From Gammaproteobacteria bacterium (GTDB lineage Bacteria; Pseudomonadota; Gammaproteobacteria; GCA-001735895), in contig JBNKUM010000094.1 of NCBI GenBank assembly GCA_050298595.1, forward strand, positions 189,539-253,538: a DNA stretch of 64,000 nt, in the 5' to 3' direction. Under the pieces are notes generated by a model that saw only the letters and a list, made by a program, of their open reading frames with translations, made no database searches and was not told where the DNA came from. The number at the start of each line of letters is the position of its first letter. Within the stretch, counting starts at the first letter, position 1. Position numbers and translations under genes: made by a program. Positions 34,362-64,000 of this stretch are shown piece after piece.

Positions 34362-34366
34362 AATAT

Positions 34367-34775: not shown

Positions 34776-34797
34776 GATATTATCAGTTTGTCATACT

Positions 34798-34961: not shown

Positions 34962-35038
34962 ACCCCTGTAGCTTAATCGAATAGAGCACCTGGCTTCGAA
35001 CCAGGCGGTTGGGAGTTTGAGTCTCTCCAGGGGTGCCA
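34962..35038 (+). tRNA. tRNA-Arg(TCG)
   Basis: Cloverleaf, CCA; T-loop TTTGAGT. Confidence 0.82.
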
Positions 35039-35044
35039 ATAATT

Positions 35045-35120
35045 GTAGCGATAATTCAATTGGCAGAATGCCGGTCTCCAAAACCGGACGTTGGGGGTTC
35101 GAGGCCCTCTCGCTACGCCA
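35045..35120 (+). tRNA. tRNA-Trp(CCA)
   Basis: Cloverleaf, G73, CCA. Confidence 0.88.
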
Positions 35121-35179
35121 TGCATGTGATTCCAAATGGTCTTCTATTTTTTAACATGGACAAGATCTGGAGGTTAACT

Positions 35180-36132: not shown

Positions 36133-36448
36133 AAAGTTCTCTAATTGTATATCCAAACATCTGTGATCATACTGCTACGCTGAAAGCATCTTAGGGTATA
36201 GTAATTTGCCTTGCAGTTACACAGGCTAAAAATTAGAACTGATCGAGGTACCCTTGACTAAGTGCTATTCTATTGTATCTCTGGAATTCCGTAATTTCCT
36301 TCTCAATAGATGGATGTCCTCGTTTACTTGCGTTTACTTTTTTTGGTAGCTTATAGCATAGTGAGAATATCTCAGTTAAAGTGATTCGGGTAATCTGCTA
36401 TGGTTTCCTGCTTGGAAAATTAATGCCTCAAAGTATTTAGAGAAAAAT

Positions 36449-37438
36449 ATGAAAACAAGAATATTAGGTAAGTCTGGTTATGTGGTATCTGAAATAGGTC
36501 TGGGTTGCTGGCAGCTCGGTAATGATTTTGGCCCAGTAGAAGAACAACAGGCTGTCGCAGTACTGGACACGGCTAAGACCCAGGAGATTAGTTTCTGGGA
36601 TACCGCCGATGTTTATGGTGCGGGTCTGAGCGAACGCCGTATTGGTCAATGGCTGGCCAGGTTAGGACCGAATGATAAACGCCCACTGGTGGCTACCAAA
36701 GTCGGGCGGGATGCCGCTCTTTATCCTGATGGATACACTAAAGACAAGGTGCGGACTAATTTGCTTGGCTCGATTGATCGTTTGGGTGTGGAAGCGTTAG
36801 ATCTGGTACAGCTACATTGTGTACCGACCGAGATATTGATGGCAGGCGATATGCTGGCCTGGATGGAGGACTTTCAACAGGAAGGGTTAATCAAGGCTTT
36901 TGGAGCCAGTGTGGAGAAAATAGAAGAGGCTTTGTTCTGTATTGAGCACCCTAAGATGACCAGCTTGCAGATTCTATTTAATCTCTTTAGGCAAGATGCT
37001 ACCGAAGTACTACTGCCCAAAGCAGCAGAAAAAGAGGTAGGTATTATTGTACGCTTGCCATTAGCCAGTGGCTTACTCAGTGGCAAGATGACCAAAGATC
37101 AGCAATTTGCGGAGGGAGATCACCGCAACTATAACCGTGATGGTGCCGCTTTCCATGTGGGTGAGACCTTCAATGGTATTCCCTTTGAAAAGGGCGTGGA
37201 GTTGGTGCAAGAACTGAATAGCTTTGTTCCTCAGGAAATGACGTTACTACAAATGGCCTTGCGCTGGATATTGGATCAACCGCAGGTGAGCACGATTATT
37301 GCTGGTTCTAGTAAAGCTCATCAGGTGGAAAGTAATGCCGCTGCTTCAGCGCTACCACCCTTACCTGACGCTCTGCATCAACAATTACGGGCCTTCTATT
37401 ACGACAAAGTAAGAGACCAGATTCGAGGAGGGATCTAA
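36449..37438 (+). CDS. aldo/keto reductase (copy 2)
   Basis: Near-identical 329-aa paralog of 20926-21915. Confidence 0.93.
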   Translation: MKTRILGKSGYVVSEIGLGCWQLGNDFGPVEEQQAVAVLDTAKTQEISFWDTADVYGAGLSERRIGQWLARLGPNDKRPLVATKVGRDAALYPDGYTKDKVRTNLLGSIDRLGVEALDLVQLHCVPTEILMAGDMLAWMEDFQQEGLIKAFGASVEKIEEALFCIEHPKMTSLQILFNLFRQDATEVLLPKAAEKEVGIIVRLPLASGLLSGKMTKDQQFAEGDHRNYNRDGAAFHVGETFNGIPFEKGVELVQELNSFVPQEMTLLQMALRWILDQPQVSTIIAGSSKAHQVESNAAASALPPLPDALHQQLRAFYYDKVRDQIRGGI

Positions 37439-37492
37439 GAGCTAATGGGGTTAGATTAAATTATATTTAACGTGTTCTTTGACACCAGTTAT

Positions 37493-47437: not shown

Positions 47438-49764
47438 TGGGGCATTTGCGATTACAACGGAGCTGGCGTTTAGTCAGCTCCGTTGTGCTGGTGGCTGGGC
47501 TGTTGTTTGCTGGCTTCCTGCTATTTGATCAAATCTATCCCGTCGATCTGCAGCCACGAAGCGCCGCACAGGTAGTCATCGATAGCCGTGGTGAACCGTT
47601 ACGTGCCTTTGCCGATGAACAGGGTGAGTGGCGTTATATGGTTCGCCTGGATCAGGTTTCACCACTTTATATTAAGACCCTGATCGCCTACGAAGACCGC
47701 TGGTTTTATCGTCACTTTGGGGTCAATCCACTGTCCCTGCTACGCGCTGCGCTGCAGTGGATACGTAATGGCTATATCGTGTCCGGTGGCTCCACTCTGA
47801 CTATGCAGGTGGCACGTATACGCTATGATCAAGCCCCTGGCATCGCGGGAAAAATTTTGCAGATGCTGCAGGCGCTACAACTGGAATGGCATTACAGCAA
47901 GGATGAAATCCTCGAGTACTATGTCAATCACGCACCTTTTGGTGGCACTCTGCAGGGGGTTGAGGCCGCCAGCCGGAGTTACTTCGGATATCCATCCGCG
48001 CAACTGACTCAGGCACAGGCCGCATTGCTGGCCGTGTTACCTCAGTCTCCGAGTCGCTACCGTCCAGATCGCTATCCTGAACAGGCACAAAAGCAACGCA
48101 ACAAGGTGCTGGACCGCCTGGTACAATATCAGATACTGACTGCAGAGCAGGCCAGTGATGCCAAACTCGAAAACGTAGACGCAAATCCGCCCCGTTTTGA
48201 GATACTGGCACCCCTGTTGAGTCGACGCCTGATGCGTCAATATCCCGCAGCACAGATCATCCCCAGCTTTATCGAGCGCGACCTGCAACGTCGTATTGAA
48301 GCGCTCGCATTCGACCAGAAGCAGATCCTGCCGCCGCATACCTCGCTGGCGATTCTGGTTATGGAGCATGGCAGCGGCAAGGTGGTCGCCTATGCGGGTT
48401 CTATCGACATGACAGATAGCGAACGTTTCGGCTATATCGATATGGTGACCGCCGAGCGCTCACCCGGTTCGACCCTGAAACCCTTTATCTACGGGCTGGC
48501 GCTGGATGAAGGTTTGATTCATAGCCAGAGCCTGTTGATGGATGTTCCACTGACCTTTGGCGATTATCGACCCCAGAATTTTACGCGCGGGTTTTCCGGA
48601 GCGGTTAGTGTCAGCCGGGCATTGCAAAAGTCGCTGAATATCCCGGCCGTTCAGGTGCTGGAGCAACTTGGCCCCGGCAACTTTTTTGCCCGCATGCAAA
48701 CCGCTGGAGCCGGGCTTTTGCTGCCGCCTGATGCCACCCCGAACCTGACGCTGGCGCTTGGTGGGGAAGCAACAAACCTGCAACATCTGGTCGCCCTGTA
48801 TAGCGCACTGGCTAATGAAGGCTACGCGATTACACCCAGGTTCACTGCGCTTGACAGCATACAAAGACGCAAGCTACTCAGCCCCGGTGCCGCCTGGATT
48901 ATTCGAGATATTCTGGCGCAGGCAAAGGTTGGAGAAAGCTGGCGCCAGAATGTCGCCATCAAGACTGGAACCAGTTATGGTAACCGCGATGCCTGGGCCA
49001 TAGGTGCTAGCGAACACCATACCATTGGCGTCTGGGTGGGTAGCCCGGATAATGCTGCCATGACAGGGCATTATGGCAGCTTTACAGCCGTCCCGATCCT
49101 GCGCTCAGTCTCTGCCATCCTGCCCGACACGGCCTACTCAGCGCATGCGCAGCCGGATAGCGTAACACGCGAGCAGATTTGCTGGCCCGGTGGGCAAAAC
49201 ACACCCGGTCTATGTGATCAGAAGATGGATGCCTGGATACTGGACGGTGTGATACCACCCACGTTGATGGGTAGCCTTGCTCAATCTCCACTCATCTCGA
49301 CACCTTATCAGACCTTCAGCATTGCAGCAGACAGCGGTCTGCGTGCAGCGCTGGGCTGTCACGTTCAGAGCAGGCAACAAACGCTGCCGATCTGGCCTGC
49401 AGCATTACAAAGCTGGATACCAGCAAAATGGCGAAATGTTAATCGAATTCCACCACTCGATCCTCGTTGCAGGCAAAGTGATGGTCTGTTAAGTGAAACC
49501 CCAGTTCAGATCACAGGCCTGGACAGGAATACAAGACTCAAGCGTCATCCAACGACCACCTCACAACCGCAACTTAGTTTCAAGGCTGTTGGCGGACAGC
49601 CTCAATGGTACTGGTTTCTGAATGGAGAACTACTGGACGAGCATGGAGACACCCTTCATCTGAGTATGCCTTTACCCGGCAGTTACCAGTTAGCGGTATC
49701 CGACCAGGCTGGCATGAGCGACGCGCTCGATTTTATTGTCGAGCCGCAGGAAATTTTTCGTTGA
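47437..49764 (+). CDS. pbpC: penicillin-binding protein 1C
   Basis: EDRWF, GGSTLTMQ, STLK, SLN and KTGT motifs; adjacent to alpha-2-macroglobulin. Confidence 0.93.
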   Translation: MGHLRLQRSWRLVSSVVLVAGLLFAGFLLFDQIYPVDLQPRSAAQVVIDSRGEPLRAFADEQGEWRYMVRLDQVSPLYIKTLIAYEDRWFYRHFGVNPLSLLRAALQWIRNGYIVSGGSTLTMQVARIRYDQAPGIAGKILQMLQALQLEWHYSKDEILEYYVNHAPFGGTLQGVEAASRSYFGYPSAQLTQAQAALLAVLPQSPSRYRPDRYPEQAQKQRNKVLDRLVQYQILTAEQASDAKLENVDANPPRFEILAPLLSRRLMRQYPAAQIIPSFIERDLQRRIEALAFDQKQILPPHTSLAILVMEHGSGKVVAYAGSIDMTDSERFGYIDMVTAERSPGSTLKPFIYGLALDEGLIHSQSLLMDVPLTFGDYRPQNFTRGFSGAVSVSRALQKSLNIPAVQVLEQLGPGNFFARMQTAGAGLLLPPDATPNLTLALGGEATNLQHLVALYSALANEGYAITPRFTALDSIQRRKLLSPGAAWIIRDILAQAKVGESWRQNVAIKTGTSYGNRDAWAIGASEHHTIGVWVGSPDNAAMTGHYGSFTAVPILRSVSAILPDTAYSAHAQPDSVTREQICWPGGQNTPGLCDQKMDAWILDGVIPPTLMGSLAQSPLISTPYQTFSIAADSGLRAALGCHVQSRQQTLPIWPAALQSWIPAKWRNVNRIPPLDPRCRQSDGLLSETPVQITGLDRNTRLKRHPTTTSQPQLSFKAVGGQPQWYWFLNGELLDEHGDTLHLSMPLPGSYQLAVSDQAGMSDALDFIVEPQEIFR

Positions 49765-49900: not shown

Positions 49901-50542
49901 ATGCGTAAACTTATGTTTATTGCTGCAATAGGCTTCGCTGTCTGGTACTGGAATACAGGCCGCTTGCCTTTTATGTCGACTGCAGGAGCTTATGACGAAG
50001 CAGGCAATCCAGTGGTGTGGATATTTACCGTAAAGGGTTGTGGGAAAGCCTGTGAAATAGGGCGGCAAGACCTGAAAAGCAGACGGATTGACTTCGAAGA
50101 AAAATTGATCGATCCAGATAACGCCAGTGATCCAGATGTACAGCTGTGGAAAGATATTGGCAAAGGAGGTTTCCCATTAACTGTTGCTGGCGATATCAAG
50201 ATCAGGGGCAGCGGCAACCTGCCCAGGCTGCAGGAGATGCTCGGTAAGAATTTTGGGGAGCGTTATCTGACCAGCGCTGAAAAAAGGCTCTTCAAAAAAC
50301 ATTTTTATCCTGATGGCACACCCAGGATTGTTTTATATGGTGCCGACTGGTGCCCGTATTGCAAGAAACTCAAAGAAGAATTCGCGGCCAATAATATTGA
50401 TTACCTGGATATAGATGTAGAAAAAAGCAGCAATAGAAAACAGATAGTCAATACCCTGGATATACCTGGTTACCCAGCTATATGGGTCGGTTATACTCGG
50501 GTTAATGGCAGTGACCTTAAAGCGGTTAAAAAACTACTCTAG
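49901..50542 (+). CDS. membrane-anchored double glutaredoxin-like protein
   Basis: CGKAC and WCPYC motifs. Confidence 0.85.
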   Translation: MRKLMFIAAIGFAVWYWNTGRLPFMSTAGAYDEAGNPVVWIFTVKGCGKACEIGRQDLKSRRIDFEEKLIDPDNASDPDVQLWKDIGKGGFPLTVAGDIKIRGSGNLPRLQEMLGKNFGERYLTSAEKRLFKKHFYPDGTPRIVLYGADWCPYCKKLKEEFAANNIDYLDIDVEKSSNRKQIVNTLDIPGYPAIWVGYTRVNGSDLKAVKKLL

Positions 50543-51058
50543 GGGATTGGATATTACAGGGTAACCTTTAGGTACTTCGGGAAAAGTCCATTAAGCCAGT
50601 ACGACTTGTTCAGGCTTCCGTTATATGCAGCTATAACAGCCATGTTAGTGGTAAAAGATGAAACCTTAGCCTGAATATTCCATATAAACCCGAGGCTTAG
50701 ATGTGAAACGTAAGGCCTGACCCCAAAGCCAATACAAGAAAAAGGAAAGCAAGTGCTGAATGGATGATCGTCGGGTAGGCGCAGAGAAATGAGGTAGATT
50801 TCTAGTGTCGAATAGCCACTTGATATATAGGGATATTGAGTTTATCCTACCTGTACTTCTGCTGCGACAGCGTGGTGGTGGTTACCTTACTGCCATAGTT
50901 TTTGGTGGCATCACAGGCAAGTCTTCCCCATCCCGTATACTTCACTCCAGAACAGACCGAACAATTTATTACTCAGCAGCCGATTCGGCGCTTTAATGGT
51001 GTGGGGCGTGTTATCGAAAAGAAACCTGAACAATCATTATTTTGAGAGGATGAGGAAA

Positions 51059-51673
51059 ATGAGAAAGCTTTTAAATGCAATTTTAACTGCAAGTCTGTTT
51101 TTCTGTGCTACTCCGGTCATGGCTATTCCTTTTTACTATGAGGCTAGTGATGTTGCTGGTGTCGGTACAGTGGCTTATGGGGTCGGAGCACCCGTATTTG
51201 ACTTTTTGGCTAGTTCGGGATCAGTAGACACCAATATGGCTGGTTTCGTTGCAGGGAACTACAGTATCGATGTGACTCTGGCTAACTTATGGGTAGATGT
51301 TAACGAGGATGGCACCAATGACTTTACTTTGTCGGATCAAAGCTTATCGTTAGGTGCCTATTATATTCCTGCGATCCCTCTTTCTGGGTCGTATGGTGCT
51401 CTGGATTGGGCTTTCGATCCTTATAGCAGTGTACATCTTTCTTATGATTTTGGTGACACGGGTCTTACAAATGAGCAAGTTAATGGAAGTCTTGCTTTAT
51501 TTGATATTCTCTATGGTGATGGCGCAAATGGCTTTATGAATGCAAATATTGGTTGGGAAACTCTTCGGATAGACCTGACGGATACTGCTCCCGTTCCTGA
51601 GCCGGGCACATTCATCCTGCTGGGTGCAGGTATTACCGGGCTCGCATTTTATAGACGCAGGAAAAACGCATAA
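51059..51673 (+). CDS. PEP-CTERM sorting-domain protein
   Basis: Signal peptide; VPEP-TM-RRRK C-terminus. Confidence 0.92.
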   Translation: MRKLLNAILTASLFFCATPVMAIPFYYEASDVAGVGTVAYGVGAPVFDFLASSGSVDTNMAGFVAGNYSIDVTLANLWVDVNEDGTNDFTLSDQSLSLGAYYIPAIPLSGSYGALDWAFDPYSSVHLSYDFGDTGLTNEQVNGSLALFDILYGDGANGFMNANIGWETLRIDLTDTAPVPEPGTFILLGAGITGLAFYRRRKNA

Positions 51674-51943
51674 ATTTCAGTAAGCTGTCCTATCCATTGG
51701 ACTTGACCCCGTGTTGGTATTATCAAACATGTGCGGGCGAATCTATCATATGAATGACAGTTCGATTGCTGGTAAAAAAAGCGCACTGCTTTTTTTCGCT
51801 GAAAAAGGGGAGCAAGTGTGCTGAATGGGTGATCATTGAATAAATGCAGGTTAATAGATGAGTTTCTGGTGTCAATTACACCCTTGAAAAACAGAGGTAT
51901 GGCGTTTATTCTGCCTATTCTTAATCCATTGGAAGGGTTCGAT

Positions 51944-52459
51944 TTGTTTAACAATATTCTTACAGTTTGTACAGCCAATATCTGCCGCAGTCCGATGGCC
52001 GAATACCTCCTGCGTTATCGGCTTGAGCAGACGGGTAATTGGCAGGGCCGGGTGTGTTCAGCAGGTGTTTCAGCGCTGGACGGCCAGCCCGCAGAAGCGG
52101 ATACAGTGGCGATGATGTTGAGTCGTAGCATTGATCTTTCTCCCCACCGAGCCACGCAGCTGACACGGCAGCAACTTCGCCAGGCTGACCTGGTGCTGGT
52201 GATGGAGAAATATCACCGACAGAGGGTGCTGGAGCTGGATTCCACTGCAAGGGGGAAGACCTTTCTGCTGGGCCACTGGAGTAATAGTGAAATAGCCGAT
52301 CCATACCAGCGTGGTGGCGAAGTGCACGCCCAGGCTCTGCAGTCAATTAAAAATGGGCTGGAGCAGTGGCTGGAAAAAATGGGGGTTACTGATTATACGA
52401 TTGACCGGACCAGTATATCGACTTCAAGGCATGGTATTCCTGGTCGACTACGCACATAA
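51944..52459 (+). CDS. wzb: low-molecular-weight protein tyrosine phosphatase
   Basis: CTANICRS and DPY motifs. Confidence 0.9.
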   Translation: MFNNILTVCTANICRSPMAEYLLRYRLEQTGNWQGRVCSAGVSALDGQPAEADTVAMMLSRSIDLSPHRATQLTRQQLRQADLVLVMEKYHRQRVLELDSTARGKTFLLGHWSNSEIADPYQRGGEVHAQALQSIKNGLEQWLEKMGVTDYTIDRTSISTSRHGIPGRLRT

Positions 52460-52478
52460 AAAAATAAAGGAATCTTAT

Positions 52479-53660
52479 ATGGGAGTTTCTTTTTTGCTTC
52501 CCAGGTGGTTATGGGTGACTATCGTTTGTCTTGTCACTACTGCACTGTCGGCTTGCGCCTTAGCCCCCGGCAGCTATCTCGGCAAACGGCAGGAATCCGT
52601 GATCAAGCTTCCGCAACAGCAAGGAGATGAACTAGCGCCAGCCAACATTAAGATCAAGGAGATCACTGCGGAGTTGATCATCGATATGTTCAACGCGGCG
52701 CGTCTGTCGCGGGCAGATGGCAGTGATGCCGCCATCAACAGACCCGCTCAACCCTCCGCAGTCGACCCTGCGGTAGATACGATCAACTACAAACTCGGTC
52801 CTGGCGATATTATTTCGATCATCGTCTGGGATCACCCGGAACTTACAACACCGGCGGGCACCTTCCGTGCGGCTGAACAAGCCGGTACTGTCGTTGCAGA
52901 AGACGGCACGATCTTCTTCCCCTACGCCGGAGTCATCCGAGTTGCCGGGCTGACTACTCGCCAGGTCCGTGATGTCCTGGCTAGCAAACTCGCCAAATAC
53001 ATCGAAAAAATCCAGCTCGACGTGCGCATGGCCCAGTTCCGCAGCAAGCGGGTGTATGTCGTTGGCGAGGTCGCCCGACCCGGTACGCAGGAAATCACCG
53101 ACATTCCGATGACCATCCTGGAAGCTGTCAACCGTGCAGGTGGATTCACCCCTGAAGCCGACTATAGTCGTGTGTTACTCACCCGTCGAGGCACCACATA
53201 CCGGGTCGATATCCAACTGATGTACGAACAGGGTGCCACCGAGCAGAATGCCCTGCTTGAACCAGGAGATATCGTGAATGTCTCGGACCGCAGCTACAAC
53301 AAGATATTTGTCCTCGGCGAAGTCAACAACCCCGGTTCACTGATTATGAACAAGAAACGCTCGACCCTGGCAGAAGCCCTGGGAGATGCTGGCTACATTA
53401 ATCAGGATAAGGCCAACCCGAGCTGGATCTACGTCATGCGTGGCGACAGCAATACACCCGAGCTTTTTCATCTTGACGGCAGCTCTCCTGATGCCATGTT
53501 GCTCGCAGATCGCTTTCCACTGCACCCACGTGACATCGTTTATGTTGATGCTGATGACCTTGTGCGCTGGAACCGTGTGATCAACAATATCCTGCCCACC
53601 TCGAATATGCTCAACATTACCAGCGGGATACGCTACCCACTTTTCGGAGGCCGGCAGTAA
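52479..53660 (+). CDS. wza: polysaccharide export outer-membrane lipoprotein
   Basis: Lipobox LSAC; YKLGPGD, VWDHPEL, SLBB repeats. Confidence 0.92.
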   Translation: MGVSFLLPRWLWVTIVCLVTTALSACALAPGSYLGKRQESVIKLPQQQGDELAPANIKIKEITAELIIDMFNAARLSRADGSDAAINRPAQPSAVDPAVDTINYKLGPGDIISIIVWDHPELTTPAGTFRAAEQAGTVVAEDGTIFFPYAGVIRVAGLTTRQVRDVLASKLAKYIEKIQLDVRMAQFRSKRVYVVGEVARPGTQEITDIPMTILEAVNRAGGFTPEADYSRVLLTRRGTTYRVDIQLMYEQGATEQNALLEPGDIVNVSDRSYNKIFVLGEVNNPGSLIMNKKRSTLAEALGDAGYINQDKANPSWIYVMRGDSNTPELFHLDGSSPDAMLLADRFPLHPRDIVYVDADDLVRWNRVINNILPTSNMLNITSGIRYPLFGGRQ

Positions 53661-53755
53661 GCTCGGCTAAAACAGCAATTGGGTGCACTGCCAGTGACGC
53701 CCAGAATAGATCACCATCCGGCTTCATGCCGGGTAGCGGTTAGAACGGAGAAAGC

Positions 53756-56023
53756 ATGGAATTAGACCAGCTTAAGCAAACCATCCCACAGAGCGTAGTT
53801 CAGCCTGGTCTGCAACAGCTAGCTCAGGAAGATGACACCATAGAGCTTGGTGAAATCATCGGCGCTATCACGGAGCGTAAATGGCTGGTTGCAATTATAA
53901 TCCTGTTGTCGTTGATGATCGGTGCTGCCTTGGTATTCGTTTCTACGCCGATATACCGTGCTGATGGACTGCTGCAGATAGAGGAAAAGAGTACCGGTAT
54001 GGAGAAGTTAGAAGCCCTGCAGTCCCTTATCGGCGATGATACCTCTGTATCAGCCGAGATCGAGATTCTCTCCTCGCGTATGATTCTGGGGCGCGTGGTA
54101 GCAAGGCAGAAGCTGGATATCGTCGCAGTACCCAAAACATTCCCACTGATCGGCGGTGTGATTGCCCGCCGCTACGTGGGTGATGGCCCCAATCTACCCT
54201 GGTTCGGTCTTTCCAGCTATGCCTGGGGCGGGGAGGTCATCCAGGTCGACTCGTTTTCCGTCCCGCAGGAATACCTCGACCACCCCATGCTGTTGCTCGC
54301 TGGCGAGGCAGATGCATTCAGCGTTATCGATGAGAGTGGCAAGCAAGTGCTCAGTGGAATCGCCGGCACTCGCACAGGAAACGAGGGGTTCTCCATCTTC
54401 GTCACGCAGATCAAGGCGAGGCCGGGGACCAGGTTCCGACTGATTAAACTTTCTGAAGAATCGGCCATCAACAATTTGCGCGCGCACTTCGGAGTCAGGG
54501 AGCGCGGTAAGCAGTCCGGCATTCTGGAACTGAGTTTTACAGGCTATGACGCCAATAAAATTGGTGTTGTGCTGGATGAAATCCAGAAAACCTACTTACG
54601 TCTGAATGTCGAACGCCGTTCGACCCAGGCCCAAAATACCCTCAAATTCCTGGAGACTCAGCTTCCCGTTCTTAAAGAGCAAGTCGACACCGCAGAAGCC
54701 GCCTACAACAGCTATCGCCAGAGCCGGGGTTCGCTAGATCTCAGTCTCGAAACACAGGGGGTGCTGAAATCGGTAATCGACATCGAGGATGCTACACTAA
54801 AACTCAAGCAGGAAAGGGAGCAACTGCGCCAACGCTTTACCGCTGAACACCCGATCATCCAGGCGGTCGATGCACAGCTTGCAAGGCTCAATGATCGCCG
54901 CAAACAGTTTGATCGGGAAGTAGCCCGATTGCCGGACACCCAGCAGACCGTGTTACGCCTGGCGCGAGATATGGAAGTGTCCACCAAGCTCTATATCGAG
55001 CTACTTAATACCGCTCAGCAATTGAAGGTATCAAAGGCTGGAACGGTAGGCAACGTACGGATCATTGACAGAGCCCTTGTTAAACGCAGCTCTGTGGGTA
55101 CTAAGCCCATTATTATTCTCGGCATCGCCTTTCTGCTCGGGCTAATGGCGAGTATGCTCACCATCCTGTTGCTGCGTGTCCTGCGAGTGGTCGTTGAAGA
55201 CCCGGAAACCATTGAAACCAGACTTGGATTGCCGGTATACGCCGTTGTGCCCCACAGCGAAGAGGAAGCGGCACTTGAGCGTAACTGGCAGAGAGGTCAA
55301 AAGAAAGGTCAAAAGAGAGGTCAAAATAGACGTAAAAAGAGAGGTGAATTGTTGGCCCTGATGATGCCGGATGATGATGCGGTGGAAAGCCTGCGCAGTC
55401 TGCGCACCACGCTACACTTCGCCCTGGTGGACGCGCCGCGTAGCTCCCTGCTTATTACCAGTCCCTGCCCCAGTGTAGGGAAGAGCTTTGTTTCGAAAAA
55501 TCTCGGTACAGTATTGGCTCAACTTGGCAAACGTATCGTGATCGTAGACGCCGACCTGCGACGTGGTCATATTAATAAGGAATTGGGGTTGGAGCGCGAA
55601 ATCGGTATTTCGGAGTACATTAGCGGCCAGTCCTCTTTCTCGGAAATTGTTAAATCCACATTGGTCCCCAACCTGTTTGTGGTCACTACTGGACAGATCC
55701 CCCCCAATCCGTCCGAGCTGCTGATGCATCCGCGTTTTGAAGCCTTACTAAGCGAGTTGAGTGGGGAATTTGAAGCTATGATTATTGATGCGCCGCCTGT
55801 GCTTGCTGTTTCCGATGCGGCCATCATCGGCCGCCATGCGGGGGCGACCCTGATTATCGCGCGTGCGGGCAAGCACCACATTTTCGAACTCGAGCAAACA
55901 GTCAAGCGGCTCAATCAGGCGGGTGTAAAGGTCAAGGGGTTTATCTTCAACGACCTCAATACCGATCGCCAGCGCAAGCGTTACGGGTACAAGGGCTACG
56001 TCTTTCAATATTCATACAAGTAA
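53756..56023 (+). CDS. wzc: polysaccharide co-polymerase tyrosine autokinase
   Basis: Two TMs; GKS Walker A; DADLRRG; IIDAPP; Tyr-rich tail. Confidence 0.93.
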   Translation: MELDQLKQTIPQSVVQPGLQQLAQEDDTIELGEIIGAITERKWLVAIIILLSLMIGAALVFVSTPIYRADGLLQIEEKSTGMEKLEALQSLIGDDTSVSAEIEILSSRMILGRVVARQKLDIVAVPKTFPLIGGVIARRYVGDGPNLPWFGLSSYAWGGEVIQVDSFSVPQEYLDHPMLLLAGEADAFSVIDESGKQVLSGIAGTRTGNEGFSIFVTQIKARPGTRFRLIKLSEESAINNLRAHFGVRERGKQSGILELSFTGYDANKIGVVLDEIQKTYLRLNVERRSTQAQNTLKFLETQLPVLKEQVDTAEAAYNSYRQSRGSLDLSLETQGVLKSVIDIEDATLKLKQEREQLRQRFTAEHPIIQAVDAQLARLNDRRKQFDREVARLPDTQQTVLRLARDMEVSTKLYIELLNTAQQLKVSKAGTVGNVRIIDRALVKRSSVGTKPIIILGIAFLLGLMASMLTILLLRVLRVVVEDPETIETRLGLPVYAVVPHSEEEAALERNWQRGQKKGQKRGQNRRKKRGELLALMMPDDDAVESLRSLRTTLHFALVDAPRSSLLITSPCPSVGKSFVSKNLGTVLAQLGKRIVIVDADLRRGHINKELGLEREIGISEYISGQSSFSEIVKSTLVPNLFVVTTGQIPPNPSELLMHPRFEALLSELSGEFEAMIIDAPPVLAVSDAAIIGRHAGATLIIARAGKHHIFELEQTVKRLNQAGVKVKGFIFNDLNTDRQRKRYGYKGYVFQYSYK

Positions 56024-56278
56024 TCAGGTACTACAGGGTATTGCATAACCAGGCGAACTCAAATCAATACCTCGTCAGCTTGCGGCGGGGATTCCAGGAT
56101 AATCGGCAGCTGATACTGGTTCGCCAGGGCAGCCCACAGCTAAATAGTGGAAGCTTAGGGTGCCTTAGATGAGGGTTTTCCCTTAATCGATTTTAAATGT
56201 CTGCACTAGACAGAGTGCACAACTTTGCGTTAAATGGGCACAAGTGCAGCATTGAGATAACCTGAACAGGATACGGCA

Positions 56279-56752
56279 ATGAAATGGAAAAACTGGCTCG
56301 AGAACTGGGATTTAACCGCACTTAAGATCAAGGCTCCTTTCCTTGAGATGGAATGGAACCCGCACGAGCCGGATCGGGATGCCGCCTGGGAACTGTACGT
56401 GGAGCTGTTAACCCGGATCACCACGCAACCGCTGGCAGCTGATGAGGGCGATGAAAAAACCGCGCTCGACAGTGTTTATTCATTGACCCCGATAACTCGC
56501 ACCATCATCAAGCAACATGGCCGCGACAGTATCGCGTTCACCCGGCTGGCCGTGGTGGTGCTGAATCAGATCATCCGGCCCTTTACTGCGCGCTGGCACA
56601 CAGTTTACCTGCAGGGGGAGTTTAACAATCCACAGACCTGTCAGCAGTTCCGGGAAGAGTTGTCCGAGTTGCAGAAGTTTCTGCGCAAATATACCCAGAT
56701 GCTGGCGGATATGGCCGGGGTGGAAGACCTGACGGCGCTAGAGGATGAGTAA
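56279..56752 (+). CDS. conserved hypothetical helical protein (WELYVELLTRI)
   Basis: 157-aa ORF overlapping the start of the next gene. Confidence 0.75.
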   Translation: MKWKNWLENWDLTALKIKAPFLEMEWNPHEPDRDAAWELYVELLTRITTQPLAADEGDEKTALDSVYSLTPITRTIIKQHGRDSIAFTRLAVVVLNQIIRPFTARWHTVYLQGEFNNPQTCQQFREELSELQKFLRKYTQMLADMAGVEDLTALEDE

Positions 56753-57578
56753 GGCTCCGGCAACCATGGAGGATCAGACATCCACGAAAACTATCCTTGT
56801 CCCCGACATCGACTGGGTCACCATTCCCGCTGGGGAATTCATTTATGGAGAGGGTGAAACACAGACGACGCTGTATCTGGATGCTTTCGAGATAGCCCGT
56901 TACCCGGTGACCAATGCCCAGTATCAGTGTTTTATCGATGATGACGGTTATGAGGACAACCAGTGGTGGCAGGGCCTTGAAAAACAGACGGTCGAACGCT
57001 CAGACTGGCCACAGGGCAACAGGCCGAAGGTCAAGGTGAGTTGGTACGAAGCGACGGCCTTCACACGCTGGTTGTCGGCACGACTGAACAAGGACATCCG
57101 CTTGCCGTTCGAACATGAATGGGAGAAGGCGGCACGAGGTGAAAAGGGGCTAGTGTATCCCTGGGGTAATGAATATGAAACAGGATTTGCCAACGTCAAC
57201 GAGTCAGATCGTAAGGGGGGAGTCTACCTGAAACAGACAACGGCGGTTGGTCTGTATCCACGTGATGACTCGTCAAACCAGATCAGAGACATGTGCGGAA
57301 ATGTCTTGGAATGGTGTAATGAATTTGGAACTGAATCTGTAGAATCAGATGATGATGAATCTCGTATGCAGGTGCTGCGCGGTGGTTCCTGGATTTTAGG
57401 CCCTGAGTTTGCGCGCGCCGCCTTCCGCTACGGAGGCAGTACCTACCACCATGACATCAATCTCGGGTTTCGGTTGTTGCGTTCGCCTGGTGTGCCTGAT
57501 GCTAGTCAGTCATCGAATTCCAATGGATCGTGGAATTCTAACGGGACGTGGAATTCCGTGTCAGGGCGGAAGAATTAA
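56745..57578 (+). CDS. standalone FGE-sulfatase (CLec-fold) domain protein
   Basis: YPVTNAQY, EWEKAARG, GNVLEW, RGGSW and GFR motifs. Confidence 0.9.
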   Translation: MSKAPATMEDQTSTKTILVPDIDWVTIPAGEFIYGEGETQTTLYLDAFEIARYPVTNAQYQCFIDDDGYEDNQWWQGLEKQTVERSDWPQGNRPKVKVSWYEATAFTRWLSARLNKDIRLPFEHEWEKAARGEKGLVYPWGNEYETGFANVNESDRKGGVYLKQTTAVGLYPRDDSSNQIRDMCGNVLEWCNEFGTESVESDDDESRMQVLRGGSWILGPEFARAAFRYGGSTYHHDINLGFRLLRSPGVPDASQSSNSNGSWNSNGTWNSVSGRKN

Positions 57579-57602
57579 TTTCGCTGGTAAATTTTTTTTT
57601 TG

Positions 57603-57622
57603 GCCTGCCCTGTCGGGCGGGC
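57603..57622 (-). other. GC-rich hairpin with GACA loop, 17 nt downstream of the FGE effector stop (DGR-type cruciform or terminator)
   Basis: Minus strand GCCCGCCC-GACA-GGGCAGGC, 7/8 bp. Confidence 0.5.
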
Positions 57623-57639
57623 AGCCAGAGAACAGCAGA

Positions 57640-60432
57640 TCATGATGGGGGCGAACGCAACAACCGAAACCCGAAATTATAGCTACGGCTGTCGGGAAGG
57701 TTCAAGCTGCGGAGGGCGGCGCGCGCAAAGTCTGGATTAAAGTACCAGCCACCGCCGCGCATCACCGGCAAGCTGGGCACCTCGACTTCTTCATCAGGTT
57801 TGTCGAAGTCGTTACGGCACCATTCCCAGACATTACCTGATGTGTCCAGAACGCCTTCCTGTGTTGAGGCATGGCGGTAAACCCCGATAGCGGTGGTTTG
57901 TTCCAGAAAATACGCACCATCTTTGTTTCTCTTTTCATTAACATTGGCGTAACCGCTCAGGTATTCAGCACCCCAGGGATAAACACGGCCTTGCTGACCA
58001 CGCGCGGCACGCTCCCATTGAGTTTCGTGGGGCAGGGTGACAGAGTAACCGAGCCGGTAGGAAAGCCAGCGTGTAAAGGCGGTTGCCTCGTACCAGTCAA
58101 CATTGGTTTTGGGTCGGTTACCCTGTGGCCATTCTGAGGGTTCCTTCTGTGGTTTTTCGAGGCCTGTCCACCAGCGTTCATCATCATAGCCTTTGTCATC
58201 GACAAAGGCCTGGTACTGTGCATTGGTGACCGGGTAGCGTGCGATCTCGAAGGCATCGAGATAGCGTTTTTCTTCGTCGCTGTCTTTACCGTAAATGAAT
58301 TCTCCTGCGGGTATGTTTACCCAGTCGATCTCGGGCCAGCTATCTGCATTCAGGCCAACGCCGAAACGCGGGTCACCGCCGGGCATGTCATTCAGCTCAT
58401 CGCCGATTTTCAGGCGTCGTTCAGGTTGGGTTTCGGGGTTGTCGAGTTCAGCCAGCAATTCATCAACAGGGGATGTTCGCGTTTGTGCCTGGGGATCTGG
58501 GCCGGGTACCTCAATTTCGATGGTGCCTACACCGGGGCGCGGATCGCCGATCTCATCCAGACGGTCGCCGATTTCGAGACGGCGTTCGGGTTTAGTATCG
58601 GGGTTTTCGATTTCGGCAAGTAGACTGTGAATATCTACCCAATAATAGATGTAGTCGGCAGTAATCCGCTCGATATCATCGATTGGCCAGATGGTTTCAG
58701 CGCTCTGGTAGAGTGCGTTTTTCTCCAATTCGGTGTGCGAAGCGAGGTGAAATACAGGGATATTAAACCGTCTTGCCAGGTTTGCTTCGTCAATGCGCGG
58801 ATCGCCTTTCATCAGGGGCATGGTTTCAAGTGAATGGATAACGAGTAACGCCGTTGCAGTTGGCAGGATACCTTCAATTGGTAATGGCTGCTCGGTATTT
58901 TGATTAACCACAGTCTCCCGATCGATACATTTCAGACCCTGGTCATGCAATTGCTGGCGGATTGAGTATGCCCATTCCTCGCTGCCGAAACCCCATGAGA
59001 TCCAGACGGTGGGCAGGGTGTTGTCAAGCGCTTCGGTTTCGCTTTCAGCGGTCTCGTCAGAGGGTTTTTGAGATTGGTTTAAGGTATAGAATTCGGCCTG
59101 GTTCAGCAATTCCTGTGGATGCTCCATCCAGCTTCGCAGGGCCTGTTGCAGTTGCAGTTGCTGTTCCACGGAATCGAAATGTTCCAGCCCCGGCCAGTCG
59201 ATGAGCGACGCGCGGCCGGATTCGCTCATGGGTGGTTCGACATCGTCGAGGCGCAGGAACAGCCCTTCTGGCAGATATTCAGTTTCTTCAGTGGATTGTG
59301 CCTGCCAGTATTTTTCGGCGTTGCGGCTCCAGATTCGAACAATGGGCCTGATGTCGTCTGGATCCTGTTGATAAACGTTACGCGGTGATTCCTCGTGCAG
59401 TTCGCAGGGAATACCCTGATCATGCAGCCACTTGCTGATCTTCTCGACGTCCGCGTAATCCGCCTTGAAGTAACTCAGTATGAGTGGCTGAACTTTATCC
59501 TGCTTCGTTGCTTTGTTCGATTCTTCAACTGGCTCGTAGCGTTCGGCACTCAGCTCCCACTGGCGACCTTCGAGTGTGGCCAGAACAAAAGATGCGGCGG
59601 GCTGATCGATTTTGATGCGTGTGTTGTTGCCTACGCTGTGCCAGTGTCCGGGTTGGCCAGCCGGTTCGATATACAGGCGGGCGGGTAGTGGGGTGGCAAA
59701 CTCGATAGCCTCCGAGTCTGCCGACGCCTCGGTGAACGCGATAACCTGGCCATGCTCTGCATCTTGGTGAATTTCGGCCAGCAGCCTTGAGATGTCCAGC
59801 GCTGCTGGCAGTTTATCCTTCAGTGACTGAGGTAACGCCTGTCGTTTATCCGGATTTATCCAGCTGTTCGAATCGCCCAAAGCCTGGGCGGCGTAGTTTG
59901 CGAGCACACGGGTTTCTTCCGATTTCTGGCCATTGTGCGTGATCACCGGCAGTATGCGCTTGGCGAGTCGAGACAGTTCAATACGCTCTTCGTCGTTGAT
60001 ATCCGCATGCAGGCGCCTGAGAATGCTTCCAACACCGGTTTCGATACCTTCAAGGTCGTCTCTGAGTGCGTAATAGCGCAGATCCCGCTCCAGCCGATCC
60101 TCGGCTGTCCAGTGGCGGGTGTGCCGGAAGGTGAATTGCCACAGCTCGTCAAGATCCTCTGCGGCTTGATTCGCTGCCAGCGCGGAAGCAACACCCTGAT
60201 GCAGGATGATTTCACTGTTTGAACGTGCTGCGATTAAAGGGCTGAACCAGAGCAATGACTCAACTTCGGCCTGTAGCTGAGGGGTAAATTCAAGACGTGC
60301 GTTGCGCAGCAGCAGGGGTTCAATACGTGGTGCCAGGATAAGGCATTGGGCAAGATCTAGCACTGCTGGATTTTCCTCCCGCACCTGGTTTATCAGCTCC
60401 AGCTCGTGGTTTTTGGCGGCTCTCCAGCTCAT
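57640..60432 (-). CDS. multidomain effector: helical N-domain, TIR-like segments, duplicated helical motif, C-terminal FGE-sulfatase
   Basis: RIEPLLLR...LWFSPL N-terminus; LILSY and VWISW TIR-like starts; 2x LLAE..NP.T.PERRL.IGD; FGE motifs. Confidence 0.82.
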   Translation of the reverse strand: MSWRAAKNHELELINQVREENPAVLDLAQCLILAPRIEPLLLRNARLEFTPQLQAEVESLLWFSPLIAARSNSEIILHQGVASALAANQAAEDLDELWQFTFRHTRHWTAEDRLERDLRYYALRDDLEGIETGVGSILRRLHADINDEERIELSRLAKRILPVITHNGQKSEETRVLANYAAQALGDSNSWINPDKRQALPQSLKDKLPAALDISRLLAEIHQDAEHGQVIAFTEASADSEAIEFATPLPARLYIEPAGQPGHWHSVGNNTRIKIDQPAASFVLATLEGRQWELSAERYEPVEESNKATKQDKVQPLILSYFKADYADVEKISKWLHDQGIPCELHEESPRNVYQQDPDDIRPIVRIWSRNAEKYWQAQSTEETEYLPEGLFLRLDDVEPPMSESGRASLIDWPGLEHFDSVEQQLQLQQALRSWMEHPQELLNQAEFYTLNQSQKPSDETAESETEALDNTLPTVWISWGFGSEEWAYSIRQQLHDQGLKCIDRETVVNQNTEQPLPIEGILPTATALLVIHSLETMPLMKGDPRIDEANLARRFNIPVFHLASHTELEKNALYQSAETIWPIDDIERITADYIYYWVDIHSLLAEIENPDTKPERRLEIGDRLDEIGDPRPGVGTIEIEVPGPDPQAQTRTSPVDELLAELDNPETQPERRLKIGDELNDMPGGDPRFGVGLNADSWPEIDWVNIPAGEFIYGKDSDEEKRYLDAFEIARYPVTNAQYQAFVDDKGYDDERWWTGLEKPQKEPSEWPQGNRPKTNVDWYEATAFTRWLSYRLGYSVTLPHETQWERAARGQQGRVYPWGAEYLSGYANVNEKRNKDGAYFLEQTTAIGVYRHASTQEGVLDTSGNVWEWCRNDFDKPDEEVEVPSLPVMRGGGWYFNPDFARAALRSLNLPDSRSYNFGFRLLRSPPS

Positions 60433-61415
60433 CGAGTATTATCCGCCAGGTGGCGCTTGATCATGGCGACAGTGGTGCGGGGGCTCCAGTGTAATACGCG
60501 AGCGTAGCCACTGGGGTCGCGCGGTGAAAAGTCTCTGGGCCAGGGTGTCAGGAATGTCAGGGGCGAAGATGCCCGCTGGCATTGTGCGATAATCCCCTGC
60601 CATTGCTGATCGAGTCTGGGGTTCCTGGTCATCCCACGCACAGCGAAGTCGGTGGCGACCAGCACAGGGCGACCATCAGCACGCCACTGGTCTCGCTCGC
60701 CTTTTAGGGTCCAGCGCATGGCTGTTTCAGGTACTGAATCGAAGTTGTAGGTATGCACCCGGCCAGGGCCGACCACATTCATCACCTGACTTTCGAGTGC
60801 AAACAGGTCTTCGCGGAAAGGCATCATGCTATGGCTGAAATCGCGCAGCAGGTGGCATCCGGCATCGAGCGTAAACTCAGCTTTATAGGGCAGATCGAAA
60901 ATCAACGGTTGATGACAAATACGCTCGATCAAACGCGGTAAATCGATTTTTCTTCCTGTTCTTTGCGTGTTCAGTGTTGCGGTGAAGATGTGGCGGCTGA
61001 CCCGGTCTGGAAAGAGGTTGCTACGGGTGAGTTTGGGCAGTGTAGAATCTGCAAGTAGATCTTTGGATGCCTGAGTCCATTTTATATCGAGACTGGCCTC
61101 CTGTGCGCGTTCAGATCGCTCGTGTAATCGCTGATTACCGGATTTGATAGTCGGCAGAGCCGGGGGGAGTTTCGGCTGGGGTGGTGTGACCGGTTTGCGT
61201 GTGGGTTGTTTTGCAGGTTGTATCTTTTGCGCCCCTTCATCAAGTCGAGGATTGCTGATTTCATCTGAGGGTTTTATATCAGGAAGCTGGCTGACATTGA
61301 ATCCAAGGCTGGCCGCAATGTCTGCTGCGTGCCCATCTTGCCAGTCCAGATTCGATAGTGCCCGAATCAGGTCACCCAGCTGGATATTGCCTTTTCTGGA
61401 GTCCTCGCTGGTCAT
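60429..61415 (-). CDS. vWA-like partner of MoxR
   Basis: DFSHSM and VATD MIDAS-like motifs; Pro-rich linker; overlaps both neighbours. Confidence 0.72.
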   Translation of the reverse strand: MTSEDSRKGNIQLGDLIRALSNLDWQDGHAADIAASLGFNVSQLPDIKPSDEISNPRLDEGAQKIQPAKQPTRKPVTPPQPKLPPALPTIKSGNQRLHERSERAQEASLDIKWTQASKDLLADSTLPKLTRSNLFPDRVSRHIFTATLNTQRTGRKIDLPRLIERICHQPLIFDLPYKAEFTLDAGCHLLRDFSHSMMPFREDLFALESQVMNVVGPGRVHTYNFDSVPETAMRWTLKGERDQWRADGRPVLVATDFAVRGMTRNPRLDQQWQGIIAQCQRASSPLTFLTPWPRDFSPRDPSGYARVLHWSPRTTVAMIKRHLADNTR

Positions 61416-62422
61416 AGAGATGGATTTTTATTTAGCACCGCGCTTTCCAGAATTTTCCAGAAAGACTGTTCATCTTCCTCGATCTTGATATCCAGTTTGT
61501 CGGCAGCCTCTAGCGCGTCGAGAAATTCACTGGTTCCAGAAGGTCTCAGTTGCATGGATTTAGCATGATCCCTGATTTTGACAAACAATTTGGCAATGTC
61601 TGTGATTAAGCCTCGGTCAATTTCTGGATGATGTCGCTCGCCGATCTCCTGAAGATGCTCCTGAAGGGGATCAGGTATCTTGAGCAGAATGCAGCGTCGT
61701 ATGAAGGCTTCTGGCAGCTCGCGCTCACCATTGGTGGTAATGATGGTTAACAGGTGAGGATTTTGCTCCGGCTTATTGTCTTTTATAGAGCGACTGACTT
61801 CATTTTGATTGTCGACCTTGTAACCCTCAGGCAGGTAAAAACGCCCAATGTCCAAGGGCTCCAGCAGATCATTGGGCAGATCCGGTTCAGCCTTGTCTAT
61901 TTCATCAATCAGCAGCACCGTATTGGCTAGTCCACCCTCATGTCTACGCTGACCGGGATAAGGCAGTTGCACATTAAGCTCCTCGGCCTGTTGCTCACTA
62001 AGCCCACGACGCGAGGCACTGTCAGGCGCGAAAGCCCACCAGAAGATTCCCGGATTAAGATAAAAATTATCCGCTTTTAGTCCCGGCCCAGCTGTTCGTA
62101 CCTGAGCATCATTCAGGCGTCGGAGCTGGTCGACCTCCGCAGTCAATGATGCGCCACTCGTTCTTGAGGTTAGCGTGGTGCGTAGCAGGTTCCACTGCTG
62201 TACCTCGGAAATAGCATCGGCAAGTCGGCTTTTACCGGTGCCCGGATTGCCCGAAACCAACAATGGACGGCCTGTCGCCAGGGCTACATCGACTGCAATC
62301 GTAATCGTGGGATTGAATATATAGGGGGCTGAGTTTGTCGTTTTTTCAAGCACCCAGCTGCCTGATTCCTCATCGAAAAGCGGTGGTATTTTGTCGAAAA
62401 AAGTCGGGTTGTATTTTTTCAT
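61412..62422 (-). CDS. MoxR-family AAA+ ATPase
   Basis: GNPGTGKS, LLIDEIDKA, TNGERELPEAFIRRC. Confidence 0.92.
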   Translation of the reverse strand: MKKYNPTFFDKIPPLFDEESGSWVLEKTTNSAPYIFNPTITIAVDVALATGRPLLVSGNPGTGKSRLADAISEVQQWNLLRTTLTSRTSGASLTAEVDQLRRLNDAQVRTAGPGLKADNFYLNPGIFWWAFAPDSASRRGLSEQQAEELNVQLPYPGQRRHEGGLANTVLLIDEIDKAEPDLPNDLLEPLDIGRFYLPEGYKVDNQNEVSRSIKDNKPEQNPHLLTIITTNGERELPEAFIRRCILLKIPDPLQEHLQEIGERHHPEIDRGLITDIAKLFVKIRDHAKSMQLRPSGTSEFLDALEAADKLDIKIEEDEQSFWKILESAVLNKNPSL

Positions 62423-62425
62423 GGT

Positions 62426-63766
62426 TTATCCGGGTATATTGTATTTTCGATAAATGAACTGTCTGGACAGGCGTTCCTCGGTATAGGCATTGGCTTCCAG
62501 CTCTGGATTGATGGCAGGATCTACACTTTCCAGGTCTTCAGGTATAGCCTGTGGGGTCTCGGCGCTGGATATGACCAGCACAATTTTATGGTAGATCTTG
62601 TTCAGCCCCCTGATTTTCTTACGTAGCCGATAATCGGGTAAACCACTATCATCAGTTGAGGTAACAACCAGGAAAATTATGGTTCCAGAGTTATTTATCT
62701 GGGCCAGGCGTTGTGCCTCAGGGATTTGCGTGGGGAAACCCTCTCCAAGCACTTTATCCTGTATGCTTTGTTTTATCTCATCAAGTGGCTGAGTGTGGGT
62801 AACCGTAACAATGCAGGGATCACTTGATCCAGGGAAAGCGCGTTCAATGCATCGGTTGAGACTGTAGCACTGAGTGCCGAGCAGTGTATCCTCAAGAGTT
62901 GCGAGGAACCCGGTCATCAACAATACGTCATCGTGTCTAAGTGCTTTGGGGAATTTCCCTGCCGCAGCCGGGTCAACCCAGAGTGATCGTATCAAGCGGA
63001 AAAGGTACTCCGCACTGTCTTTATCTGGTTGCGGTGTTAGCTTGTTCAGGCTGGTTTCAAATACCTTGAAACAACGTGCTTCGGTTTGCGTGTTGACTGA
63101 AAACATTTCTCTGGAAAGCATATCTGCAAAGCGGCTGATGCTCTGGTTTCCGTCATCGGGAATCGTACAATTGAGTGATTCGAGGGCCGCAATAATCGAT
63201 TGCTGTGTAGTCTGATCTGACAGCAGTTTGGTGATACCTCCCTGCAGAACTTCGAGTGGTGTTTGTGGGTACTTGTCGGCAAGTTCATCGGGTTCACCCA
63301 GTGCCTGCACCAGACCATCCACTATATCCTGCGCGCTTTCGATATCCCTTATGCACTGGTTGACTGCTATCTTGATTGTACCCAGGTAGCCGGTGGAGAG
63401 TTTGTCGCAGGAGAGTTCGTTGTTGATGGTTACCGGGATCAGCTTGAAAGTGTCATCCAGATCGGCTCGCCAACTGAGAATAGTGGCTTCCTTTGCCACC
63501 CAGTCGGATTTTTCAACAGCACGTTTTGAAAAGATGATCAGGGCGACATGGCATTCAGCTAACCAGAGATTGAGATGATGATTCCAGTCTCCGCCCGGTA
63601 TCAGTCCATCCTTGTCCACTAGCACCTGAATCCGGTCACCGTATTTATTCTTGATGGCCGCGCAAGTCTCTTCCAGCAATTTCCAGTTGTGGTCCTCTGA
63701 TGTCCATTTGTTGGGGACATCATCGAGCCTTGAACTGTGGCTGATGAATAGTTTTAGTTTTGCCAT
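62426..63766 (-). CDS. TIR-domain protein with uncharacterised C-terminal domains (VMAP-like position)
   Basis: LFISHS...VDKDGLIPGGDW...SDWVAKE; directly upstream of MoxR. Confidence 0.8.
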   Translation of the reverse strand: MAKLKLFISHSSRLDDVPNKWTSEDHNWKLLEETCAAIKNKYGDRIQVLVDKDGLIPGGDWNHHLNLWLAECHVALIIFSKRAVEKSDWVAKEATILSWRADLDDTFKLIPVTINNELSCDKLSTGYLGTIKIAVNQCIRDIESAQDIVDGLVQALGEPDELADKYPQTPLEVLQGGITKLLSDQTTQQSIIAALESLNCTIPDDGNQSISRFADMLSREMFSVNTQTEARCFKVFETSLNKLTPQPDKDSAEYLFRLIRSLWVDPAAAGKFPKALRHDDVLLMTGFLATLEDTLLGTQCYSLNRCIERAFPGSSDPCIVTVTHTQPLDEIKQSIQDKVLGEGFPTQIPEAQRLAQINNSGTIIFLVVTSTDDSGLPDYRLRKKIRGLNKIYHKIVLVISSAETPQAIPEDLESVDPAINPELEANAYTEERLSRQFIYRKYNIPG

Positions 63767-64000
63767 CCGGTGGAATTTTGTTATTGGTCTGGCTGTATCA
63801 TATAGCAAAGAGCCAATAGTGAGAAGCACATGGATTATCGTCCAACTGCGGATTCCAGGATGATGACTATCGGCGTTTGAAGGCGGAGCTGCAACACAGG
63901 CTCTCATCGGAATTATCCACCGTATTAGTTCCATTGTTTAGTTTTGTTATGTCATAGGGGGTATAGAGCGCAGTTTTTTTTGTAACATGTTTCTCTTTAT

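Follow-up and report, generated by a model that had tools for sequence, protein, structure and literature searches.

Diversity-generating retroelements (DGRs) rewrite the genes that they serve: the RNA of a template repeat (TR) is reverse-transcribed with random misincorporation opposite the template adenines, and the resulting cDNA takes the place of a target gene's 3' end, so that AAY codons can become any NNY codon while the non-adenine bases of the scaffold are copied exactly. In the sections of the literature that deal with how such targets are arranged, the DGR loci of clade 5A are described as holding a MoxR gene, one short target that has only the CLec (C-type lectin) domain, one long target and TIR neighbours, and incomplete DGR loci are described as being diversified in trans (both PMC10907252); 10 DGRs are credited with 29 targets lying more than 100 kb away (PMC5758913, Wu et al. 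2018). Here, we take up a 64-kb stretch of gammaproteobacterial DNA (contig JBNKUM010000094.1, positions 189,539 to 253,538; hereafter the window, meaning the whole stretch that was analysed, with a G+C content of 48.4%), in which two convergent genes, one short and one long, end in C-termini that are very probably variable regions (VRs) written by a DGR. In other words, what wrote these two gene ends, and is the writer still at work?

That the two genes appear to be CLec/FGE-fold targets with DGR variable regions in a MoxR-type conflict locus, as a sequence-only reading of the window had proposed, is strongly supported, because the substitution pattern, the TR/VR pairs found across the family, the synteny with a complete DGR locus and the published descriptions all speak for it. 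A protein-guided alignment of both FGE domains over 227 codons gives 58% residue identity, so the two domains are old paralogues. Within codons for the same residue (W and M codons left out), there is no synonymous difference at 14 sites in the last 26 codons, a 3' block running from TTT GCG to TCG, as against 59 of 107 upstream (Fisher p 5.6e-5); among changed codons, the third position is altered in 2 of 12 in that block and in 64 of 83 upstream (p 8.3e-5). That is, the 12 changed codons of the block differ at positions 1 and 2, and 10 of them keep position 3. From 57408 to 57487, the 3' part of its variable region, the short target has been homogenised with the long one.

The longest exact runs in the whole alignment are a 25-mer and a 15-mer (the next longest has 12 bases), and these are the scaffolds that had been said to be shared by both gene ends. 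Each was found exactly twice in the window and in the expected places: the 25-mer at 57463-57487 on the plus strand and 57650-57674 on the minus strand (0.00 copies expected from 100 shuffles), the 15-mer at 57408-57422 on the plus strand and 57715-57729 on the minus strand (with as many as 2 mismatches allowed, two or more matches came out of 3 of 100 shuffles). Between CGC and AAT lie 10 codons, in all of which the residue differs, and the third positions, all C or T, are the same in 8; this earlier count proved exact, and it lies far from chance when set against the upstream codons.

Could ordinary paralogues have come to look like this, with the scaffold kept by gene conversion or by strong DNA-level selection and the loop between driven apart by diversifying selection? 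The genes are indeed paralogues at 58% residue identity, and no template is seen, both of which would suit such an origin. Gene conversion, however, would have homogenised the 12 intervening codons too, and selection on the protein neither removes synonymous differences (0 of 14 against 59 of 107) nor holds third positions at C or T where positions 1 and 2 vary. The columns that vary are, moreover, the adenine columns of proven templates in homologues, and the syntenic locus described below is a complete DGR. We regard an origin without a DGR as highly improbable.

As a surrogate for a template of its own, we aligned both window regions with 11 homologous templates of relatives and counted over the 110 columns that begin at RGG and end with the last base common to both. 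Columns with an adenine majority account for 19 of the 33 that differ between the two regions and for 10 of the 77 that are identical (p 3.2e-6, with an odds ratio of 9.1). Taken alone, the 3' part shows differences in 15 of its 21 adenine columns and in 6 of its 59 remaining ones. Judged by these surrogates, the tendency of mismatches to fall on template adenines thus belongs to the 3' part; to the 5' part we return below.

The family to which the short target belongs is diversified by DGRs, as its homologues prove. With the short protein as the query, 6621 of 7094 candidates matched at E <=0.001, and most of the best 120 homologues share the frame RGGSW-x3-P-x2-ARA-x2-R-x4-P-x2-R-x4-GFR, in which x is hypervariable; 21 of these 120 are fusions to a TIR domain. 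We fetched 76 loci that encode relatives and compared each with itself for a second copy of the gene's 3' end. TR/VR pairs whose mismatches lie at the adenines of one copy came out in 12 of the 76, and tblastn detected DGR-type reverse transcriptase (RT) sequence in 22 of these loci, in several as fragments only. One such pair is weak (L004, 6 of 8 mismatches at adenines), and another is clean (L033, 10885-11013, 23 of 23) yet has no RT within 10 kb. One locus (L014, 11278-11404) holds a copy that has a template-type end, CCCACATC, and is no longer A-rich. The N-terminal extension of an apparent RT reading frame in L016 was set aside as an antisense reading of the avd gene and not an RT domain.

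Closest to the point is locus L001 of a metagenome-assembled gammaproteobacterium (CAWBPR010000022.1, 10782-31480), where gene order and orientation are as in the window; it reads short FGE gene, TR, bAvd, RT, long FGE gene, p344, MoxR, TIR. Unlike the window, L001 has a TR (10939-11069) between the convergent genes, where the window has 61 bp, as well as a bAvd gene (11483-11821, minus strand, PF22296 at 3.3e-18) and an RT gene (11796-12878, PF00078 at 6e-15), neither of which occurs in the slot of the window. Identity to the counterparts in L001 is 57% for the short target, 36% for p328, 49% for MoxR and 38% for the TIR protein; the long target, compared with an 812-aa target in L001, reaches 53% in its last 336 residues and 35% in an N-terminal stretch of 442. 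Window and L001 also agree in the variable frame and in how the variable region ends at its 3' side. L001 also has a third target beyond its TIR gene, and its three variable regions differ from its template at adenines only or almost only (19 of 19, 21 of 22 and 16 of 16 mismatches).

The row TIR, MoxR, p328 and long target is common to seven of the loci (L001, L003, L005, L006, L007, L008 and L018), and what lies beside the long target varies among them: a whole RT in L001, an RT running to the contig end in L006, an RT in pieces with avd in L018, and in L003 two C-terminal RT fragments with a strong template-like repeat (9595-9719). In L005 and L007, RT, Avd and template are all absent there, and L008 ends at a contig edge and is uninformative. 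The slot between the convergent targets is thus empty, as in the window, in 2 of the 6 informative syntenic relatives. Counted at codon positions 1, 2 and 3, the differences between paired regions are [7,6,0] in L001 and [8,7,1] in L043, both with a resident DGR, and [17,14,19] in the RT-less pair of L007, which is fully drifted.

The claim that the window contains no RT holds. A Pfam scan of 45 of its 86 open reading frames of at least 100 aa, namely those not nested in longer ones, returned none, and tblastn of the window with 10 DGR RTs from relatives reached a best E of 0.21. No Avd was found in the 64 kb (best E for bAvd 0.26). A profile built from the 11 templates finds only the two variable regions in the window, the next match having E 0.26, and motif searches with the 25-mer and the 15-mer gave no template copy. 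Rfam gave no match at E <=1 in 50000-64000. A search for TR or RT remnants in the 166 bases from 57480 to 57645 (blastn-short and tblastx against the 76 loci and the window) gave chance-level matches only, apart from a 14-nt exact match with L013 that contains GCTGTTCTCTGGC and lies just ahead of the inverted repeat in the gap, and we found no deletion scar in that gap.

The 3' ends of the two regions differ in ways that matter for what follows. In relatives, templates end in sequence like CCCACATC and variable regions in CCCCCATC, with GC hairpins of 3-4 nt loops about 20-50 nt later. The minus-strand region keeps the end that is typical of variable regions, CCCCCATC, where templates have CCCACATC, and it keeps a GC inverted repeat as well. 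For this gene, a GC hairpin with a GACA loop had been described: the GC inverted repeat is there, and a version with the GACA tetraloop would need a C.A mismatch, the best fold being a bulged stem of 9 bp with an 8-nt loop (-8.3 kcal/mol, z -1.06). Inverted repeats of this kind are given for only 34% of DGRs in the relevant part of PMC5758913. Nor is this one an intrinsic terminator: a run of 10 T (57592-57601, plus strand) precedes it on the plus strand, an A run follows it on the minus strand, and no terminator-like site on it came out of the scan.

The plus-strand region parts from the minus-strand one right after TCGCC (57487), ahead of the family-typical end CCCCCATC, and its gene continues past the variable region into a C-terminal tail of 30 residues. 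Since P0004, a protein 72% identical to the short target, carries a homologous tail, the tail is old, and the idea that it marks a deletion breakpoint is weakened by the same homologue. Apart from this, in seven of the relatives (L013, L016, L024, L026, L033, L039 and L061), runs of short repeats built from CTGA and CTG (for example, CACTGATCACTGAAACACTG) lie in the 70 nt that follow the variable regions, putting stop codons in several frames ahead of the GC hairpin; the minus-strand gene of the window has a short version, ATCTGCTGTTCTCTGG.

Table 1. Features of the target locus, with positions counted from the first base of the window
Feature	Position	Strand	Remarks
p157, conserved hypothetical, 157 aa	56279..56752	+	Overlaps, with its stop, the start of the short target
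Short CLec-only target, 277 aa	56745..57578	+	PF03781 FGE-sulfatase, E 7e-47; little else
Putative variable region of the short target, RGGSW...GFRLLRSP	57378..57487	+	TR profile of relatives matches 57365-57493, E 1.8e-13
18-nt tandem repeat, 2.4 copies	57515..57557	+	In the 30-residue tail of the short target
Gap between the stop codons of the convergent targets, 61 bp	57579..57639		Slot of TR, bAvd and RT in syntenic relatives
GC-rich inverted repeat	57601..57627	-	Roughly 17 nt after the minus-strand variable region ends
Putative variable region of the long target	57644..57759	-	Family-typical 3' end GCCCCCATC; TR profile matches 57644-57772, E 3.1e-16
Long target, 930 aa	57640..60432	-	PF03781 at residues 703-926, E 2.6e-43
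p328, possibly vWA-like	60429..61415	-	Between the MoxR gene and the long target; 344-aa counterpart in L001
MoxR-like AAA+ ATPase, 336 aa	61412..62422	-	PF07728 AAA_5, E 7e-12; weak bpMoxR match
TIR-domain protein, 502 aa, presumed effector	62426..63934	-	PF13676, E 1.5e-6, and PF01582

A good deal can be said against reading these regions as the work of a DGR. There is no template, Avd or RT in 64 kb and no TR of its own with which the defining TR/VR comparison could be made, and the window holds only 6.2 kb to the right of the target pair. By codon position, the pair differs as [11,8,2] in the 3' 26 codons and as [17,14,12] over all 40, which is less clean than the pairs of L001 and L043. 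The plus-strand region has neither a CCCCCATC end nor a GC hairpin. On the minus strand, the fold of the inverted repeat is equalled or bettered by 29 of 200 shuffles, and the hairpin argument is weaker than had been stated.

The 5' third of the variable region is a further difficulty, in that the two genes have not been homogenised here: 6 of its 10 codons differ at the third position, so that differences are not confined there to positions 1 and 2, and in the 5' 30 columns of the alignment with templates, 8 of 22 non-adenine columns differ. These differences are ordinary divergence, and DGR retrohoming is known, as PMC5758913 treats it, to be less precise at its 5' boundary. The same part bears on the extent that had been given for the variable regions. 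Their shared ends were correctly placed, and their start was not: homology puts it about 30 nt further 5', at RGGSW (57378 on the plus strand and 57759 on the minus strand).

In the 3' part, the non-adenine differences include 4 that fall at positions where none of the homologous templates has an adenine, namely two third positions (GGA/TTG and ATC/TAT) and the codons for which relatives have P and R (ACC/CCC and CAT/CGT). This points to a measure of drift after the regions were last rewritten, or else to a second template, and it would also fit the non-canonical changes that PMC5758913 reports for some DGRs.

How, then, might the two regions have been written? Both of them would have received their latest sequence from a single common template, long after the gene had been duplicated, and the donor DGR would lie elsewhere, either at a different locus from which it acts in trans or a short way past the window's right edge. 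The short gene has its old tail and yet shares a base-identical scaffold with the long gene, and homogenisation would therefore have continued in the present arrangement. Between a donor that still exists elsewhere in the genome, or did until recently, and a frozen relic, we lean slightly toward the donor, at about even chances of being right. If the regions are still being rewritten, then the canonical 3' end of the variable region and the hairpin would be dispensable for retrohoming in trans, at least for the short target.

A relic, which we consider possible and would defend only tentatively, would mean that a resident cassette of TR, bAvd and RT was deleted and that these regions have no other DGR in the genome to serve them, so that their binding surfaces are frozen and slowly drifting. 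The cassette slot is down to 61 bp, and loss recurs within the synteny group: L005 and L007 are without RT and TR, L003 keeps the two C-terminal fragments and L018 has its RT in pieces, while L009, beside its homologue of p157, keeps a remnant of 25 RT residues. The window pair is also intermediate between the pair of the DGR-bearing L001 and the drifted pair of the RT-less L007; the four differences at positions that are non-adenine in all homologous templates and the plus gene's lack of a 3' recognition end and hairpin point the same way, and the degradation of redundant DGR parts has been published, in the part of PMC10907252 that treats such loci.

Set against this, there is no synonymous difference at the 14 scaffold sites, although the tail of the short gene predates a 28% divergence from P0004, and there is neither a deletion scar nor a remnant in the gap. 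By our own estimate, the chance that four drift changes would all miss the 14 synonymous sites of the scaffold, as opposed to 36 free sites in the core, is about 0.27, by which drift is neither excluded nor shown. One may go a step further and imagine the DGR cassette, in this family of TIR-MoxR sensor loci, as a transient writer, which diversifies the two sensors and is excised from between them time and again (as in the window, L005 and L007; L003, L009 and L018 would hold what is left of it), leaving behind frozen receptor specificities that selection maintains; we think this unlikely. Together with L005, L007, L003, L009 and L018, the window indicates that such loci often lose their own template-RT cassette, and the full genome would make it a simple test case for a trans-acting DGR as opposed to fossil variable regions.

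What the targets do can be approached from their fold. An AlphaFold model of the short target (87 sequences, pLDDT 76.8) matches the folds of FGE, EgtB, ToxD and PvdO in Foldseek at probability 1.0, and by sequence the protein matches the TvpA structure 2y3c (E 4.5e-6). We reject a catalytic identity as FGE, EgtB or PvdO: the NCBIfam equivalog matches all fall far below their cut-offs (EgtB 84 against 360 bits, PvdO 56 against 500), and neither target has a cysteine between RGGSW and GFR, within the C-terminal segment where, we presume, the active-site cysteines of the FGE family sit. The targets would probably bind ligands and so serve the MoxR/TIR module as its sensor, a role that has been proposed for such loci in the discussion of them in PMC10907252. 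The short and long targets would then be the ligand-binding, presumably sensor, parts of a conflict-type operon of TIR, MoxR-AAA+ and p328.

The long target is the last gene of the co-oriented row that runs from TIR through MoxR and p328, and it is built of a domain-less N-terminal extension, two PERRL-IGD repeats and the C-terminal CLec/FGE domain. In its database form, the short target starts at 56766 and has 270 aa. For p328, no Pfam match was obtained, even at E 10, and an Atlas language-model lead points to VWA_CoxE (0.93). For p157, no Pfam, NCBIfam or PADLOC family matched, and Atlas offers unnamed clusters only, with DUF6650 as a weak lead (0.84). Homologues of p157 at 58-61% identity adjoin FGE-type DGR loci in L003 (14880-15350), L009 (6047-6517) and L066 (14563-15030), in L009 directly adjoining the RT remnant, and p157 may be a conserved partner of short CLec-only targets. 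An Avd-like accessory role for p157 was dropped, as there is no bAvd or Avd match and L001 has its true bAvd in a separate gene.

The conflict locus has, just upstream of it, genes for an exosortase (EpsH) and a VIT-vWA protein, for a PEP-CTERM protein and for polysaccharide export by a Wzb, Wza and Wzc set (26334-29901 and 50996-56023). As to the organism, one conserved housekeeping protein, the beta subunit of a formate dehydrogenase, is 77-78% identical to its counterparts in Sideroxydans, Sideroxyarcus, Gallionella and Nitrosomonadales MAGs and 84% identical to metagenome proteins, which points to an uncultured relative of the Nitrosomonadales/Gallionellaceae type. The rest of the window has features of its own. 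Within 3.4 kb (31732-35120) there are 18 tRNA genes on the plus strand, with two tRNA-His, one of them read with the anticodon ATG, and two tRNA-Lys, and an open reading frame for an HNH endonuclease (35033-35752) follows and overlaps this array; tRNA arrays are often mobile or phage-derived. An aldo/keto reductase gene occurs in two direct copies (20843-21922 and 36366-37445; 1081 bp, 92% identical), bracketing about 14.4 kb in which cytochrome c genes, an IS200-like transposase fragment, the exosortase and VIT-vWA genes, a helix-turn-helix protein, the tRNA array and the HNH gene are found; from its sequence, this stretch of about 14.4 kb looks like an inserted island between duplicated flanks. 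Another duplicated segment (1337-2066 and 5949-6679, 731 bp, 91%, with 1088-1223 and 6710-6845, 136 bp, 87.5%) holds two coiled-coil-like open reading frames of 147 aa (1563-2006 and 6176-6619). A bacterial alpha-2-macroglobulin gene (1710 aa) is directly followed by a gene for a PBP1C-type penicillin-binding protein (42305-49764), which is a known gene pairing.

It remains to set this locus beside those already described, in the sections of the sources that treat them. The vWA-MoxR (VMAP) ternary conflict systems, whose FGS domains are diversified by DGRs (Kaur et al. 2020, PMC7159879), link MoxR to an FGS/CLec protein and a TIR effector, as here, and their TR may lie elsewhere in the genome; unlike these systems, the window has no vWA or VMAP domain by Pfam, and its FGS domain is not fused to vWA. 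The TvpA DGR of Treponema denticola (PMC5758913; 2y3c) has the FGE-type CLec fold with a C-terminal variable region that we see here, and one DGR there serves non-adjacent or remote targets; unlike in the window, its TR and RT are known.

The layout is that of clade 5A in Thiohalocapsa PB-PSB1 (DGR 8) and relatives (Dore et al. 2024, PMC10907252), in which MoxR precedes a target whose N-terminal extension bears no known domain, a second, short CLec-only target is present, and the neighbours are TIR or peptidase genes; the window has the same arrangement, with TIR as the neighbour. There being no RT in the window, it is likened to clade 5A by gene layout and not by RT clade. It also differs from the clade 5A loci in having an extra gene, p328, between MoxR and the long target, in the 30-residue tail with its 18-nt tandem repeat on the short target, and in its source, which looks Nitrosomonadales-like and not like a purple sulfur bacterium. 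The want of a resident cassette has its parallel in the same organism, where loci 1, 3, 4, 5 and 7 are incomplete or remote; some of them, wanting RT and/or TR, either undergo diversification in trans or have degraded (PMC10907252). Incomplete and remote DGR loci are, in short, already published, to judge from what these sources say of them (PMC10907252, PMC7159879 and PMC5758913), and the window adds one more. It leaves existing knowledge of DGRs unchanged, and takes its place beside the described systems as what would be one more case of DGR-written, lectin-fold sensors in a MoxR/TIR conflict operon.

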